Positions 3 to 5,782 of a stretch of 27,688 nt of DNA are shown in pieces. The first letter of the stretch is position 1. The number at the start of each line of letters is the position of its first letter. The position numbers and the translations under genes were made by a program. Below the pieces are notes generated by a model. That model made no database searches. It had not been told where the DNA came from and saw only the letters and a program-made list of their open reading frames with translations. This DNA comes from Gemmatimonadota bacterium (GTDB lineage Bacteria; Gemmatimonadota; Gemmatimonadetes; Longimicrobiales; Gaopeijiaceae). The stretch lies in NCBI GenBank assembly GCA_003695865.1, contig RFGQ01000297.1:1-27688 (forward strand). The letters run 5' to 3'.

Positions 3-137
3 GGAGCCGACCTGCGCGAGGCGCTGGCGCCCGAGCGCCTGGCCGCGGCCGTGGCCCGCCGCCTCGACGCCGCCGACGCCGAAGAGGCGGGTGCCTGGAT
101 CGACGCGGCGGTGCGGGCCCTGGCGGGCGCCCGATGA
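3..137 (+). CDS. 3' end of an upstream CDS (5'-truncated by the window), product unknown
   Basis: Frame 3 is open from the window start (GADLREALAPERLAAAVARRLDAADAEEAGAWIDAAVRALAGAR*) with GC3-rich codons and TGA at 135-137. Too short to assign. An SbcD-like partner is possible from context only. Confidence 0.55.
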   Translation, partial: GADLREALAPERLAAAVARRLDAADAEEAGAWIDAAVRALAGAR

Positions 138-160
138 CGACGAGAAAGGCCTAGGAGCGT

Positions 161-1501
161 TTGACACTGACGTCGCTGCAGACGGTTTCGGGCGTGCTGC
201 CCGAGCCACTGGCGCTCGAGACCGGCTTCTCGGCGCTGGTCGTGCCGAGCGGACGCCTGCGCCGCGAACTGGGGCTGGCGCTGCGCCAGGACCTGCTGGC
301 GCACGACGACGCCGTGGCGGCGGCGATCGCTTCGCTGCGTGGATCGCCCGCGGAGCAGTTGACGGGGGGCGCGGCGATCCTGGCCCGGGTGCTCGGACTA
401 GACCAGGTCGAGCGCGACCTGCGTGCCGAGAAGGACGGGTCCGCCGATGCCGCGCCCTCGCCGGCGGGCGACCTCGGCGCCCGGTTGGCCGAACTGGAAC
501 CTGTGCCCATGCGGCTCTCCGAACTCGAGGAACGCTTGCGCGATCTTCGGGCCGACGCGGTCGAGGTCGCGGGCGACCTCGAGGTCGAGAACATGGAGTG
601 GCTGCGCCAGCGGCAGGATGCCGAGACGCATCTACAGGCATACCGCGACCGGGCGCGGGAGCTCAAGGGACGCCTCGGTGAGCTCCGCGCACGCGGTGCC
701 GAGTCGACCTGCCCCACGTGCGGCCGGGAGCTCGAGGGGCTGCTCGACACCGTCGTGAAGCAGCTCGAGGAAGAGTGGGAGTCGGTCGTGCAGGACGGCC
801 GCTGGTGGAAGCGCCGGCGAGAGCAGCTCGAACTCAAGCCTGAGAAGCTGCGTTCGCTCGAGGGGCGCTCGATCCGACTACAGGCCGAAATCGAGCGCCT
901 CACCGAAGAGGTGGAGCGCCTGCGCGGGCAGCAGAGCGAACTCCTCGAAGTACGCCGTCGCATGGCCGAAGCGGACGTGCCGCCCGAGCCGTCCACTCCG
1001 CACGGACGTGCACTGCGGGCGCTCGAGGACGAGATCCGGGACGAGGCCCGGGAGCTGCTGCTCACTCGGCTGAGTCGCGCACTGAACCGGCTTTCGGCAG
1101 GCCGCGTGCTCGGCGTGGTGGACGACGCGGATGCGCGGCCGCGCCTCGTGCTCGACGAGGGAGCCCAGGAGCCCGCATCGGACGACGAATGCGCGATGTT
1201 CGGGCTGGGGCTTCGCCTCGCGCTGGCCGATCTCGTCACGCGGCGTGGCGCGGCGCCCGGTACGCTCGTGTTGGGCGAGGACTTCGACCGGCTGCCGCAC
1301 GACGCGCGCATCCGCGCCATCGTGCTCATGCGTGCGCTGTCGCGCCGGGTGCCTCAGATCCTGCTCTTCTGCCCGGGCGAAGTGGCGGGGCTGGTGCCCG
1401 AGTCGTTCGACCGCGTCATCGAGATCCGCGAGCGGGAAGGCGGAGGCGCGGTCGTCGTCCGCACCGTTCGCACGGGCCTGGGCAGAATCCAGGTGCACTG
1501 A
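161..1501 (+). CDS. Degenerate SbcC/Rad50-like coiled-coil protein with intact CxxC zinc hook and inactivated ABC-ATPase head
   Basis: Central CPTC hook (nt 710-721) flanked by coiled coil. The C-terminal lobe keeps SbcC order and spacing: SDDE..LGLRLAL at the signature (SGGE..LALRLAL), LVLGEDFDRLP at Walker B/D-loop (LILDE.FGSLD), LLFCP at the H-loop (ILITH). The N-terminal GFSALVVPSGRLRR sits at the Walker A position. The TTG start is uncertain. Confidence 0.75.
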   Translation: MTLTSLQTVSGVLPEPLALETGFSALVVPSGRLRRELGLALRQDLLAHDDAVAAAIASLRGSPAEQLTGGAAILARVLGLDQVERDLRAEKDGSADAAPSPAGDLGARLAELEPVPMRLSELEERLRDLRADAVEVAGDLEVENMEWLRQRQDAETHLQAYRDRARELKGRLGELRARGAESTCPTCGRELEGLLDTVVKQLEEEWESVVQDGRWWKRRREQLELKPEKLRSLEGRSIRLQAEIERLTEEVERLRGQQSELLEVRRRMAEADVPPEPSTPHGRALRALEDEIRDEARELLLTRLSRALNRLSAGRVLGVVDDADARPRLVLDEGAQEPASDDECAMFGLGLRLALADLVTRRGAAPGTLVLGEDFDRLPHDARIRAIVLMRALSRRVPQILLFCPGEVAGLVPESFDRVIEIREREGGGAVVVRTVRTGLGRIQVH

Positions 1502-1517: not shown

Positions 1518-3785
1518 TCAACGCCCCAGCGTCTGCCAGGCCAGCAGTCGCTCTCGCCACCGGGCGAACGAGGCGGCGTCGCCGCCCTCCAACGCCGCCT
1601 GCGTGAGGGCGGCGTAGGCCCACGCGTAGTAGTTCGGGATGCCGGCCGAGGGGCGATCCGGCCAGAAGGCCCACGCGTCGGGGATGCCGCCACGGTGCAC
1701 GAACACGCGGTCCACGAGCGTAGCGGTACGCCCCACGTCGACCCGGCGCCCCGTGACCGGCGCCACCCGGTCGTCGGCGACGCGGTGGACTCCGGGGAGC
1801 GAGTCCACTCCGGCGCCCACGAGCCGGTACGCGAGGCCCTGACGCACGACCTGGTCCTCGAGTCCCAGCGTATGCAGCGCCGTGCCGCTCGACGCGAAGT
1901 AGACGGGCCGGTCGCCGAGCGACCGGGCGATGATCGCCATGGCGAGCTGGTGCCAGGGGAGCACGATCATGTCGGCGGGCAGGTTCGCGCGCGCGGCTCC
2001 AAGGTTGATCGAGCGCGCCCGGTCGAGCCTGAAGTACCCCTCGGGGCTCGTCACGCCGTCGATGGTCGCGTCGTCGAGGTCGAGCACGGGCCCGGAGGGG
2101 GCGCGGATCGGTTGTGGTAGTTCGATCAACACCCGCGTCGGGTCGGCGGGCGTGCCGGGCGCAACGTAGGCGGCCGGGCCGCGCGACGGGTCGTACGGGC
2201 GCTGGCAGACGATCCGTGTGGGCGTCGAGTCGGGGTCCTCGCCGGGACCGCAGGGACGGCTGAGGTCGCGAATCTGCCGGGCGTACCAGGGCGTGTTGAG
2301 GTACGACGTCACCACCACGATCACGTCCCGGCGTAGTCCCTCGACCTCCTGCAGATACCAGAGCGGAAACGTGTCGTTGTCGCCGTTGGTGAAGAGCACC
2401 CCGTAGGGTTCGACGCTCATGAGCAGGTTGTAGGCCCAGTCGCGCGCGGCGTAGTCGCCGCTCCGCTCCGCCCACGGCGCGTTGAGCACGCCCGGCACCA
2501 GGGCCACCAGCAGGACCGGCGCCGCGGCGCGCGTCGAGCGGAGGCGGGCCGCCAGTCGCTGCCAGAGGGCGCAGAGTCCCACGCCGGCCCACAGGCCGAA
2601 CACCGAGAACCCGATCAGGAAGAAATAGTCTCGCTCTCGCACCTCGTTGAGCGTGCGGTCGTTGCCCGGCGTCGCGAACGAGTAGCCGTACTTGAAGTTC
2701 AGGTAGACGACGAGGCCCGCGGTGAGGGTGGCGAGCAGAACGATCCCATAGAGGGCGGCCTGCCGGTCGTGCCGCGCCACCGCCGCGAGGCCGACCGCGC
2801 AGAGCATCAGAAAGAGCAGCGTGAACGGCAGCCGGCCGAGGGCCAGGAGGGGGTTCTCGCCCTGCACCGAGCGGCTCCACTGCCAGTCGAGGTACTGAAC
2901 GAAGTTGGCGACCTGCATCGTGAGGGGCGCCTGGCGGGGCAGCAGGGGCGGCTTGTCGTACTGCTCACGCCGCAGCGCCGCAGACAGGTCGTCGCACCCG
3001 GCCTGCCCCCAGGTGGCCACGCTGAGCATGGCGGCGGCGGTCGACTCGCACGTGGGTTCGGCCTCGTTGATCGTGGGGTGAAGGGCCGAGCGCAGCGGCA
3101 GAAAAAGGTGGACCGAAAGCCCCACCAGTACCGCGAGGACGCCCCACCCGTAGAGCCGCGGCCTCAGCAGGCTCGCCGGCCGAACGGTGAACACGAACAC
3201 GGCGAGCGCGGGCGCCGCGAGGAACGCCATCAGGTGGTTGCCGACCGAGAGCGCGAGGATGAAGGCGACCAGCACGAGCAGCCGGTCGCCGCCGCCGCTG
3301 CGCACGCCCGCCCGCCAACGCAGCGCCAGCCAGGTGAGCAGCGCGACGGTGAAGAGCGAGACCGTGTAGACCTTCTCGTTCACGTTCGACTGGTTCCACA
3401 CGGTGAACGCGGTCGCGCTGATCACGACCGCCGCGGCGGCTCCGAGCAGGCGTTGGCGCCGCTCGGAGACGACACCGCCCAGCAGTTCGTGCACCACGAG
3501 GAACCAGAGCCCGTGCGCCGCGGCGCTCATCGCGGCGCTGAACAGGTTGATGCGCACGGCCACGGGCAGGCCGAGAGGGGCGAGCAGCAGCTCCCAGGTG
3601 CGGCCCAGCAGTACGAAGAGCGGATTCCCGGGCGGGTGGGGAATGCCCAGGATGTGGCTGGTGGCGATGTACTCGCTGGTGTCCCAGAACGCGGTCGTGG
3701 GCGCGAGCGTCGAGGCGTAGAGCGCGAAGACGGCGGCCGTGGCCCCTGCGGCCCAGGCGTAGGGAGGGCGTGGCGCCCCGGTCAC
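1518..3785 (-). CDS. DUF2723 (TMEM260-like) multi-pass membrane GT-C glycosyltransferase
   Basis: Motifs TTAFWDTSEY, LGIPHPPGNPLFVLLG, VNEKVY and NGDNDTFPLWYLQEVEG..RDV, about 10 hydrophobic segments, and a soluble C-terminal domain. Start placed at GTG 3785, which overlaps the upstream stop (GTGA); the track start at 3821 is probably too long. Confidence 0.88.
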   Translation of the reverse strand: MTGAPRPPYAWAAGATAAVFALYASTLAPTTAFWDTSEYIATSHILGIPHPPGNPLFVLLGRTWELLLAPLGLPVAVRINLFSAAMSAAAHGLWFLVVHELLGGVVSERRQRLLGAAAAVVISATAFTVWNQSNVNEKVYTVSLFTVALLTWLALRWRAGVRSGGGDRLLVLVAFILALSVGNHLMAFLAAPALAVFVFTVRPASLLRPRLYGWGVLAVLVGLSVHLFLPLRSALHPTINEAEPTCESTAAAMLSVATWGQAGCDDLSAALRREQYDKPPLLPRQAPLTMQVANFVQYLDWQWSRSVQGENPLLALGRLPFTLLFLMLCAVGLAAVARHDRQAALYGIVLLATLTAGLVVYLNFKYGYSFATPGNDRTLNEVRERDYFFLIGFSVFGLWAGVGLCALWQRLAARLRSTRAAAPVLLVALVPGVLNAPWAERSGDYAARDWAYNLLMSVEPYGVLFTNGDNDTFPLWYLQEVEGLRRDVIVVVTSYLNTPWYARQIRDLSRPCGPGEDPDSTPTRIVCQRPYDPSRGPAAYVAPGTPADPTRVLIELPQPIRAPSGPVLDLDDATIDGVTSPEGYFRLDRARSINLGAARANLPADMIVLPWHQLAMAIIARSLGDRPVYFASSGTALHTLGLEDQVVRQGLAYRLVGAGVDSLPGVHRVADDRVAPVTGRRVDVGRTATLVDRVFVHRGGIPDAWAFWPDRPSAGIPNYYAWAYAALTQAALEGGDAASFARWRERLLAWQTLGR

Positions 3786-5782
3786 GGCCCCGTGCTCGGA
3801 TGCAGGTGCAGCACGCCCCACTCATCCACCCGCGCCCGCCAGCCGCTGGGCACCCAGGTGGTGGCGCTGTACTCGAGCACGAGAGTGGGCCCCTCGAGTT
3901 CGTGGCCGGCGCGCAGGTCGCGTCGCCAGACCCGCGCGGCCTCGACCTCCTGCCCACGTTCCACCAGACGCCACGGCTCGAGCCGGGGCGGCCCCTCGGC
4001 CGGGTCCAGCCGTCGCGGCTCCACGTGGGCGCCGGGCGCGGCGGCGGCCACGCGCAGCGTGACGGCTTCCGGCGCGCGTTCCGGATAGGCGTAGCCGTAG
4101 CGGGCGCGGTGGGCCTGGTGAAAGGCGTTGCGCCAATCGGGTGCGGCGGGCACGCGCAGCTCAAAGCTCTGCCCGGGGTAGCGCGCGTCCACTTCGCGCT
4201 GGAGGGTGAGCACGTCGCGCGCCGCGCCCTCGGCCACGAGCGCCTCGGCCGCCGCCGCGTCCAGCTCTTCGAAGGCCGCCGCGATGCGCTCGTCCGCGTC
4301 GGGCGCCGCACCGCTCACCAGCACCGTTCGCGACGCCTCGCGGACGACGTCGGCCGAGAGGATTCCGTACGCGGACAGCGTTCCCGGATCGGGCGGCACG
4401 AGGGCGCCGCGTGCGCCCAGTCGCTCGGCGAGCCCCGCCACGTGAAGCGCGCCGGCGCCGCCGAAGGCCACCACCATGAAGTCGGCCGGATCGTGGCCCC
4501 GTTCGACCGAGATCACCCGAAGGGCGCGCTCCATGGCGGTGTCGGCCACCGCGAGCACGCCCTCGGCGGCCTCCTCGAGCGAGGTGCCGAGCGCCTCGGC
4601 GAGCTCGGCGAGCGGCCCCTCGACGGCGTCGCGGTCGAGCGTGCCCTCGCCCCCCAGGAAGGCGTCGGTGGGCAGGCGACGCAGCCACACGTGTGCGTCG
4701 GTCACCGTCAGACCGGTCCCGCCACGCCCGTAGCAGATCGGGCCGGGGTCGGCCCCGGCCGAGCGGGGCCCCACGCGCAGCGCGCCGCCGGGATCCACGC
4801 GGGCGAGGCTGCCGCCGCCCGCGCCCACCGTGTGGATGTCGACCACCGGCAACGCCACGGGCTGGCCCCCGATGCGGAACTCGCGGGTGCGCAGCGGCCG
4901 GCCCGGACAGAGCGAGACGTCGGTGGAGGTGCCGCCCATGTCGAACGTGATCACCCGCTCCCATCCCGCGCGGCGCGCCCATGCGAGCGCGCCTACCACC
5001 CCGCCCGCGGGCCCCGACAGCACCGTGTGCGCGGGCTCGGCCACGGCCCGCTCGACGGAGAGCGCGCCCCCGTTCGAGCCCATGATGCGCACGCGCTCGG
5101 CGCCCGATTCCCGGGCGATGCGACCGAGGTAGCGCGACATGACGGGCGCCACGTACGCGTTCACGACCGTCGTGGAGGCGCGCTCGTATTCGCGGTACTC
5201 GGGCAGCAGGGCAGACGACAGCGACACGGGCACGGCGAGGTCGGCGAGGGCGTCGCCGACCGCGCGCTCGTGGTCGGGGTTCGCGTAGGCGTGCAGCAGC
5301 ACGACCGCCACGGACTCGGCGTCGCGGACGCGGTCGGCGAGGTCGGCCAGCTCACCGGGGTCGAGCGGCTCGACCTCTTCGCCGTCGGGGCCCAGGCGGC
5401 CGGCGATGCCGATGCGGTCGCCGCGGGCCACGAGGGGTGGGGGGCGGTGGCCGACGAGCGCGTAGAGCTGTGGCCGGTCCTGGCGGCCGATCTCGATCAC
5501 GTCTTCGAAGCCGCGGTTGGTGACCAGGGCCACCCGGGCGCCGCGCCGCTCGAGCAGGGCGTTCGTGGCCACGGTCGAACCGTGCAGCAGCAGGAACGCG
5601 GCACCCTCCTCCACGAAGCTTCGCACCCCCTCGAGCACGGCGTCGGCGGGATCGGCGGGCGTCGAGGGGACTTTCAGGACGTGCAGCCCGCCCTCGTCGT
5701 CGAGGTGGAGCACGTCGGTGAACGTGCCCCCCGTGTCGACGGCCAGGATTCGCGTCGTCTTCCGGTCGGCGTTCTGCGGCAT
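3782..5782 (-). CDS. Hydantoinase/5-oxoprolinase family protein, A (ATP-binding) subunit
   Basis: VDTGGTFTD, HGSTVATNALLER, FDMGGTSTDVS, VDIHTVGAGGGS and VAFGGAGALH motifs; 666 aa. Confidence 0.93.
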   Translation of the reverse strand: MPQNADRKTTRILAVDTGGTFTDVLHLDDEGGLHVLKVPSTPADPADAVLEGVRSFVEEGAAFLLLHGSTVATNALLERRGARVALVTNRGFEDVIEIGRQDRPQLYALVGHRPPPLVARGDRIGIAGRLGPDGEEVEPLDPGELADLADRVRDAESVAVVLLHAYANPDHERAVGDALADLAVPVSLSSALLPEYREYERASTTVVNAYVAPVMSRYLGRIARESGAERVRIMGSNGGALSVERAVAEPAHTVLSGPAGGVVGALAWARRAGWERVITFDMGGTSTDVSLCPGRPLRTREFRIGGQPVALPVVDIHTVGAGGGSLARVDPGGALRVGPRSAGADPGPICYGRGGTGLTVTDAHVWLRRLPTDAFLGGEGTLDRDAVEGPLAELAEALGTSLEEAAEGVLAVADTAMERALRVISVERGHDPADFMVVAFGGAGALHVAGLAERLGARGALVPPDPGTLSAYGILSADVVREASRTVLVSGAAPDADERIAAAFEELDAAAAEALVAEGAARDVLTLQREVDARYPGQSFELRVPAAPDWRNAFHQAHRARYGYAYPERAPEAVTLRVAAAAPGAHVEPRRLDPAEGPPRLEPWRLVERGQEVEAARVWRRDLRAGHELEGPTLVLEYSATTWVPSGWRARVDEWGVLHLHPSTGP

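Follow-up and report, generated by a model that had tools for sequence, protein, structure and literature searches.

A Rad50-like protein with degenerate ATP motifs and a conserved zinc hook in Gemmatimonadota

Archaeal Rad50, as known from Pyrococcus furiosus, is an ATP-driven clamp with long coiled coils, and part of the N-terminal head lobe binds DNA in canonical Rad50 structures. LmuB, the SMC/Rad50-like protein of Lamassu defence systems, combines short coiled coils with a head of the same type and is an active ATPase. In Bacillus subtilis, the SbcE/SbcF (YhaN/YhaO) pair joins an SMC-like ATPase to a Mre11-type phosphoesterase and has a link to the membrane (PMC2811018, whose naming we follow). 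For all Mre11-Rad50 (MR) and SMC machines it is an open question which functions need the ATP cycle and which need the hook, the coiled coil or assembly alone; tethering, scaffolding and signalling are possibly ATP-free functions, and laboratories probe them with point mutants. Here we describe what appears to be a natural variant of this kind, encoded at positions 161–1501 of the forward strand of contig RFGQ01000297.1 from a Gemmatimonadota bacterium (assembly GCA_003695865.1). The window analysed is the whole contig, 27,688 nucleotides long. The gene encodes a Rad50-like protein with degenerate ATP motifs and an intact zinc hook, and its product is probably part of a nucleotide-independent, hook-linked scaffold that derives from Mre11-Rad50 and is tied to the membrane.

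The form against which this locus is best compared is the canonical pair of a sister family of the same order (locus L027, 384 + 814 amino acids). Its Rad50, unlike the window protein, keeps GPNGAGK(S/T), the Q-loop, SGGE, LDE, the D-loop and the H-loop His, and has coiled-coil arms of ~200 residues; its Mre11 keeps GNHD and GHxH. The canonical pair has no upstream membrane-protein gene and has not been seen fused.

The Rad50-like protein and its ATP motifs

The source assembly is 88% complete, with 831 contigs and a G+C content of ~70%. The open reading frame (ORF) at 161–1501 (+) begins with TTG, a start that agrees with the aligned N-termini of its orthologues, and continues for 446 codons uninterrupted by stops. 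The features of the gene and its immediate 5′ flank are as follows (aa, amino acids; dN/dS, ratio of nonsynonymous to synonymous substitution rates).

3–137, plus strand: 3′ end of the Mre11/SbcD-like partner gene, 44 codons and TGA, matching the C-terminal (Rad50-binding-type) tail of orthologues
144–149, plus strand: GAAAGG, alternative ribosome-binding-like site, read from the sequence
153–157, plus strand: AGGAG, ribosome-binding-like site before the TTG, read from the sequence
161–1501, plus strand: putative Rad50/SbcC-derived pseudo-ATPase, 446 aa (ORF, homologues, AlphaFold2 model, Foldseek, motif alignment, dN/dS)
239–268, plus strand: degenerate P-loop VVPSGRLRRE, aa 27–36 (alignment to canonical GPNGAGK(S/T)T)
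503–703, plus strand: N-terminal coiled-coil arm, aa 115–181 (AlphaFold2 helix 115–181, conservation profile)
593–667, plus strand: near-invariant pre-hook block, aa 145–169, inside the N-terminal arm (conservation profile)
710–721, plus strand: zinc-hook CPTC (C184, C187), aligned with the CPTCGRP hook of canonical Gemmatimonadota Rad50
743–973, plus strand: C-terminal coiled-coil arm, aa 195–271 (AlphaFold2 helices 195–222 and 228–271)
767–841, plus strand: invariant post-hook block VQDGxWWxxRxxQLxxKP, aa 203–227, common to the sister family's canonical Rad50 (family counts)
1178–1189, plus strand: signature-motif remnant SDDE, aa 340–343 (alignment and family counts)
1265–1297, plus strand: Walker B/D-loop remnant LVLGEDFDRLP, aa 369–379 (alignment and family counts)
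1361–1381, plus strand: H-loop remnant LLFCPGE, aa 401–407, with His replaced by P405 (alignment and family counts)

Structure prediction indicates that this ORF encodes a protein with a Rad50 fold. The AlphaFold2 model, built on a 23-sequence alignment, has a predicted local distance difference test (pLDDT) score of 86.5. Its N-lobe is short, with a strand at residues 22–27, a P-loop helix at 32–47 and then helices to residue 112. A helix at 115–181 leads to the turn with C184-P-T-C187, and helices 195–222 and 228–271 lead on to an alpha/beta C-lobe (residues 280–437), so that the CPTC motif sits at the apex of an antiparallel coiled coil between helices 115–181 and 195–271. Foldseek matched the C-lobe to P. 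furiosus Rad50 (1f2u_D, template modelling score (TM) 0.76 and root-mean-square deviation (rmsd) 2.9; 9a9j_B, TM 0.74) and the whole chain to SMC, LmuB and JetC heads, and a structure search of AFDB/Swiss-Prot returned archaeal Rad50 first and RecN next. The Rad50-type ATP-binding cassette (ABC) head is thus represented by lobe II, with lobe I only partial in the model (a beta-strand and the P-loop helix, followed by helices).

Among sequence families the best match, below threshold, was Rad50 PRK02224 (E 4e-6, spanning the hook), and in the PDB the C-lobe chains of P. furiosus Rad50 matched at E ~0.05. A Pfam scan of the protein gave nothing above threshold, only coiled-coil noise below it with Rad50_zn_hook at E 0.24, and no match to AAA_27; the curated Rad50/SbcC cut-offs were likewise missed (NCBIfam Rad50, 25.4 vs 1087 bits; TIGR00618 sbcC, 11.7 vs 478.5 bits). 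PADLOC returned LmuB (E 8e-9; aa 105–294) and also JetC, with matches confined to the coiled coil.

To locate the ATP motifs, the family was aligned with four canonical Gemmatimonadota Rad50 proteins from a phylum scan and two from the representative library, and residues were counted over 80 species-representative loci, from metagenome-assembled genomes (MAGs) labelled Gemmatimonadota, Longimicrobiales or UBA6960, plus the window (81 in all). Walker A, GPNGAGK(S/T)T in canonical proteins, reads V28-P-S-G-R-L-R34-R-E in the window, with R34 in place of the Lys and L33 in place of the preceding Gly. Across the family the Lys is found in 0/81 and Arg in 70/81, the Gly before it survives in 5/81, and the Ser/Thr after it is mostly Arg. 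The signature SGGE has become S340-D-D-E, the Gly-Gly being absent from all 81, with conserved acidic residues in its stead. At the Walker B Asp position the window has G372 (family: D in 2/81, G in 37, E in 36), and the position of the catalytic Glu is still acidic, as E373 in the window and as E (37) or D (35) in the family. The D-loop SLD reads R377-L-P, next to an FDRL block kept in 78–80 of 81, and the H-loop His is P405 in the window, with His in none of the 81, Arg in 72 and Pro in 5. Relative to canonical proteins, ~200 residues including the Q-loop are deleted between the P-loop helix and the coiled coil, and a further ~135 from the C-terminal arm, leaving arms of ~67 and ~77 residues and a protein ~370 residues shorter (446 vs 814 aa). 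It is also acidic, with an isoelectric point (pI) of 5.2 overall and 4.7 in the N-lobe. Judged from this alignment, none of the six motifs (Walker A, Q-loop, signature, Walker B, D-loop and H-loop) survives.

The protein belongs to a widespread family. A word-indexed search returned 246 homologues, 43–57% identical and almost all of 430–500 aa, from sources labelled Gemmatimonadota or Longimicrobiales; more than 240 of that length align end to end with the window protein. A profile search of 1.8 billion representatives gave 873 matches, and in a scan of one genome per species 202 genomes encoded a relative of conserved length. The records listed from that scan are all MAGs labelled Gemmatimonadota, Longimicrobiales or UBA6960, bar one 4-kb contig with a fused copy (L095, DATKBQ010000623.1), which was binned as Planctomycetota and is probably a binning error, not a transfer. 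Relatives' proteins also appear in metatranscriptomes, whereas no RNA run was found to contain the window's own DNA.

Selection was measured on codon alignments of pairs with unsaturated dS (0.4–0.8) and describes the family, not the window's own branch, whose nearest relative is 56% identical with saturated dS. Whole-gene dN/dS was 0.13–0.16 for the Rad50-like gene, comprising 0.14–0.22 for the N-lobe, 0.10–0.17 for coiled coil and hook and 0.07–0.13 for the C-lobe; its upstream companions, a Mre11-like gene and a membrane-protein gene, gave 0.09–0.14 and 0.18–0.26. All three genes are under purifying selection, and the Rad50-like gene is a maintained pseudo-ATPase gene, not a decaying pseudogene. 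A frame left open by chance might be argued from the loss of every catalytic motif and from the partner gene, which is interrupted by an insertion sequence in one relative and maybe frameshifted in another. Yet purifying selection in all three domains, conserved length in more than 200 species genomes, blocks of invariant residues and the conservation of the replacement residues themselves make decay hardly credible. The initial annotation, made from the window's letters, had described the substituted ABC motifs, a much shortened N-lobe, a preserved hook, an intact frame of 446 codons and a maintained pseudo-ATPase; each of these descriptions agrees with the results, and the substitutions it listed sit at the true motif positions. 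The three outcomes that it had named as fatal (no Rad50-like structural match; orthologues absent or frameshifted with dN/dS near 1; hook cysteines conserved no better than the remainder) are all contradicted by the data.

Conserved arginines raise a different possibility, that Arg has taken over from the P-loop Lys and the H-loop His and that the head still cycles with some nucleotide or phosphate ligand. The frequency of Arg at both positions, the acidic residue at the catalytic-Glu position and the low dN/dS of the C-lobe, the lowest of the three regions, are what such a protein would show. However, the Gly that shapes the P-loop is nearly gone, the residue after the Lys position is mostly another Arg, the Q-loop region is deleted and the Walker B Asp all but absent. 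Moreover, the signature Gly-Gly has given way to acidic residues that would repel phosphate. Non-canonical ligand binding with cycling is accordingly improbable in our estimation.

Zinc hook, Mre11-like partner and membrane-protein gene

The hook region is the best-conserved part of the Rad50-like protein. Its two cysteines, C184 and C187, never vary (101/101 close homologues, 81/81 species loci), against a mean column identity of 49%, and the blocks on either side, RxRQDAET on the N-terminal flank and VQDGxWWxxRxxQLxxKP on the C-terminal flank, are likewise invariant in the family. That canonical Rad50 of the sister family has these blocks too points to an ancestral constraint independent of catalysis, and hook plus hook-proximal coiled coil are the parts closest to canonical Gemmatimonadota Rad50 (37–48% identity). 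The blocks (RQDAET; QDGxWW..R..QL..KP) are conserved in the active 814-aa protein (L027:1918–4362) and in other canonical Gemmatimonadota Rad50 proteins. As coiled coils are rarely so conserved, the hook-proximal block may be a partner-binding or rod-forming surface. A complex prediction of the full-length homodimer with Zn scored 0.01, which counts neither for nor against binding.

Upstream of the Rad50-like gene lies a degenerate Mre11-like gene, cut by the contig end; the initial annotation had proposed to check whether the upstream gene is SbcD/Mre11-like, but neither its identity nor the coupled membrane-protein gene was visible from the window. The window holds its last codons, and the rest is on a second contig of the same assembly (C200), with ~10 codons missing between the two; this contig carries the end of the membrane-protein gene and then the Mre11-like gene running off the contig end. 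In relatives the order is the same, membrane protein (~210–250 aa), Mre11-like protein (~355 aa) and Rad50-like protein. The Mre11-like gene precedes the Rad50-like gene in 79/80 loci, and in 45/80 the two share one open frame with no stop between them. Fusion proteins of 760–930 aa are common in the representative library, and their N-terminal halves match Mre11/SbcD models. Such fusions are strong evidence that the Mre11-like and Rad50-like proteins work as one unit.

The Mre11-like protein matches Mre11/SbcD models over its first ~100 residues only, yet its whole length can be aligned with canonical Gemmatimonadota SbcD. Counted over 80 copies, the Asp and His of motif I are kept in 78/78 and the Gly-Asp of motif II in 79/79. 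In motif III the Asn is absent (0/79) and the catalytic His has been replaced by Arg in 79/79. Motif IV retains its His in 44/80 (Tyr in 35), and motif V its first His in 18/80 and its second in 80/80. Under the ligand assignment established for P. furiosus Mre11, the retained residues are those of metal site A and site B is destroyed. By these motifs, then, the protein keeps site A, has lost site B and carries less than the full phosphoesterase set of motifs I–V. In a tree of Mre11 proteins the degenerate clade is monophyletic (97/98) with a long stem (0.92); this tree holds four canonical sequences and one distant outgroup and is compatible with either a nested or a sister placement of the clade. 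Two loci have a disrupted Mre11-like gene: at L036:61–2522 it is split by a transposase gene (Transposase_mut) with the downstream Rad50-like gene intact, and at L019:363–2874 (genome G291) the Mre11-like part matches in two frames, a frameshift that is either an assembly error or a real break.

A gene for a membrane protein with six predicted helices, in a low-confidence model, stands upstream in 69/80 loci, and its stop overlaps the Mre11-like start (NTGA) in 70/88; the Mre11-like/Rad50-like pair is thus translationally coupled to it. The gene was absent from the canonical MR loci that we fetched. Its AlphaFold2 model (8 sequences, pLDDT 58) was too poor for a fold search, and the protein had no match in Pfam, NCBIfam or PADLOC and only unnamed clusters in the protein atlas. 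In the window's nearest clade a flavin-reductase gene lies directly 5′ of the membrane-protein gene (L005:5718–6867, L039:216–1362), where there may be a four-gene operon; in other clades a divergent promoter region is found there instead. In relatives the upstream regions of the operon share short conserved stretches, among which no LexA-type palindrome was recognised, and a search of positions 1–1800 of the window gave neither a sigma-70-like promoter nor an intrinsic terminator.

Downstream, convergent with the Rad50-like gene, is a gene for a 767-aa TMEM260-like (protein O-mannosyltransferase-like) membrane protein at 1518–3821 (−); the two stop codons are 16 nt apart, and the convergent arrangement is kept in relatives. 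A 392-aa antisense ORF at 151–1329 (−) was read not as a gene but as a shadow frame, of a kind frequent at 72% G+C.

Descent from the canonical Mre11-Rad50 locus

When the family profile was run against 301 genomes of the phylum, strong full-length matches came only from the window's own family (f1). Other large families matched at E 1e-13 to 1e-37, in 123/125 genomes of family f4 and 69/69 of f5 (the latter tally includes one unpublished genome, G157, on which alone no claim rests). Four loci fetched from families f3, f4 and f5 proved to be canonical sbcD-rad50 pairs of ~390 and 805–815 aa with GPNGAGK(S/T) intact. Conversely, the sister family's 814-aa canonical Rad50, used as query against 61 f1 genomes (one per genus, several of them single-contig), found no canonical Rad50 there and matched only the hook region of the degenerate form and the N-terminal 50 residues of SMC; none was found in the 88% complete source genome either. 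The degenerate pair (L005 and the window) and the canonical pair (L027/L028) share one chromosomal neighbourhood, sigma70-RsgA upstream and trpE downstream.

The Rad50-like gene is therefore not a paralogue of a canonical SbcC, since it occupies the position of the sister family's 384 + 814-aa pair in genomes where no canonical Rad50 was found; it is the positional descendant (orthologue) of canonical Gemmatimonadota Rad50, remodelled in one family-level lineage. On this point the initial annotation, which had called the gene a paralogue, has to be corrected, and with it the idea that the protein might act, through hook pairing, as heterodimeric partner or inhibitor of the cell's canonical SbcC/Rad50. 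Mixed hooks are sterically conceivable, given how close the hook and proximal coiled coil remain to the canonical sequence. Against such pairing, the Rad50-like gene has its own Mre11-like partner, usually fused, and sits at the ancestral MR locus, and the cell offers no canonical Rad50 that our searches could find. Apart from the Rad50-like protein, the one SbcCD-like ATPase belongs to the AAA_27, or SbcE, type. The source genome encodes an SbcE/SbcF-type pair on two contigs (C656, locus L010, and C216), its own copy cut by contig ends: a Metallophos nuclease in which no motif is missing and an AAA_27 ATPase carrying GPNEAGKST. In a complete relative (L034) the full-length ATPase has 894 aa and a central hydrophobic (membrane) hairpin in place of any CxxC, so that it cannot be a hook partner. 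Taken together, heterodimeric pairing is very improbable.

With this query the SbcE/SbcF-type pair was found in 9/16 f1 genomes and in 0/71 of family f4 and 0/31 of f5. This distribution suggests acquisition of a further nuclease-ATPase system by the lineage in which MR ceased to be catalytic, although these genomes are kin and the pattern amounts to one or a few events and not to a statistic.

Mode of action and relation to known systems

How might such a complex work? In the scaffold model that we favour, the Mre11-like and Rad50-like proteins would form an Mre11(2)-Rad50(2)-type assembly, one end of which would be held by a Zn-bridged hook dimer. The heads would no longer open and close with ATP; instead, a fixed, nucleotide-free head-head or head-Mre11 interface would occupy the place where ATP used to sit. 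Such a fixed protein interface is suggested by the conservation of the replacements, namely the Walker A Arg, the H-loop Arg, the acidic residues of the former signature and FDRL. The complex would then be a scaffold or tether sitting passively at the membrane and not a nuclease motor. As its cargo, the surviving Mre11 site would most likely hold DNA ends or DNA phosphate; together with the invariant Arg, this site would suit a DNA phosphate or end. An ATP-independent tether had been one of the options in the initial annotation, and it is the most plausible role for the Rad50-like protein.

Several considerations weigh against this model. Hook dimerisation and the head contacts are deduced from homology and conservation, and contact with the membrane protein, which has no recognisable family and a poor model, from the coupling of the genes. 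Binding of a phosphate ligand by the two conserved arginines, in the P-loop and the H-loop, is still conceivable in principle. A DNA cargo is not assured, because the DNA-binding part of the N-lobe is among what was deleted and the protein has an acidic pI. In some genera of the family (g2, g7 and others, several with complete genomes) neither the degenerate pair nor canonical Mre11-Rad50 is present, and the pair is dispensable in some lineages. Finally, the source genome is 88% complete.

The doubt about DNA leads to a related alternative, in which the complex has left DNA metabolism and the fold has been reused for a membrane- or envelope-associated coiled-coil scaffold with a non-DNA role. 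Only the degenerate clade has acquired the membrane-protein gene with its translational coupling; the deleted N-lobe part and the acidity of the protein fit such a role; the neighbours are not repair genes (a TMEM260-like glycosyltransferase, hydantoinase, trpE); and the SbcE/SbcF-type pair, confined to the window's family in our counts (0/102 genomes in the two canonical-MR families), could cover repair. This neighbourhood was inherited from the canonical locus, however, and says little about function, whereas the strict retention of Mre11 metal site A, with Arg at the catalytic His, fits a pocket for phosphate or a DNA end, and the hook-proximal block is common to a canonical Rad50 that presumably acts on DNA. 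A role away from DNA is on balance rather unlikely.

A narrower version of the scaffold model can also be drawn, in which the heads form a constitutive nucleotide-free clamp: the Walker A and H-loop arginines of one head would pair with the acidic former signature of the other and replace ATP as the glue, and the hook-linked Mre11(2)-Rad50(2) complex, anchored in the membrane through the six-helix protein, would hold DNA ends or the nucleoid without energy, break processing having passed to the SbcE/SbcF-type pair. So detailed a picture is speculative, and we regard it as unlikely to be correct in full.

No published account of a motif-dead bacterial Rad50 came up in full-text literature searches. 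The family offers a natural separation-of-function variant, maintained by purifying selection in the 80 species loci analysed, in which the ATP site is gone, half of the nuclease site remains, the arms are short, the hook is left as it was and a probable membrane partner has joined. Because the degenerate variant replaces the canonical enzyme, these cells live, as far as our searches show, without a classical Rad50, and the hook-proximal block common to the degenerate and the active forms marks a surface that matters independently of catalysis. At ~800 residues per fused protomer the complex is small, and attractive as a structural model if it can be expressed.

Comparison with described systems places the complex as follows. 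With canonical Gemmatimonadota Mre11-Rad50 it shares gene order and neighbourhood, the hook CPTCGR, the hook-proximal blocks and the fold of head lobe II, and the Mre11 partners align over their whole length; it differs in everything that serves catalysis in the Rad50 of the sister family, in arm length and in the membrane-protein gene. Archaeal Rad50 (P. furiosus; PDB 1F2U, 3QKT, 9A9J) provides the best structural match to the C-terminal head lobe (TM 0.74–0.76, rmsd 2.6–2.9), yet it is driven by ATP, for which the window protein has no motifs. The archaeal hook, CPVCGR, resembles that of the window protein. Like the complex described here, SbcE/SbcF pairs an SMC-like protein with a Mre11-type phosphoesterase and is linked to the membrane, but SbcE-type proteins are AAA_27 ATPases with intact Walker motifs and a central membrane hairpin, whereas the window protein has a CxxC hook and would reach the membrane, if at all, only through a separate protein. 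Lamassu LmuB and the other short SMC/Rad50-like defence ATPases likewise combine short coiled coils with a Rad50/SMC head (Foldseek 9hqu/9hqx), but neighbouring LmuA and LmuC are absent here and the locus is a vertically inherited core neighbourhood, not a defence island. The complex descends from Rad50 and has an MR-like architecture, while it lacks every catalytic feature by which Rad50/SbcC proteins are recognised.

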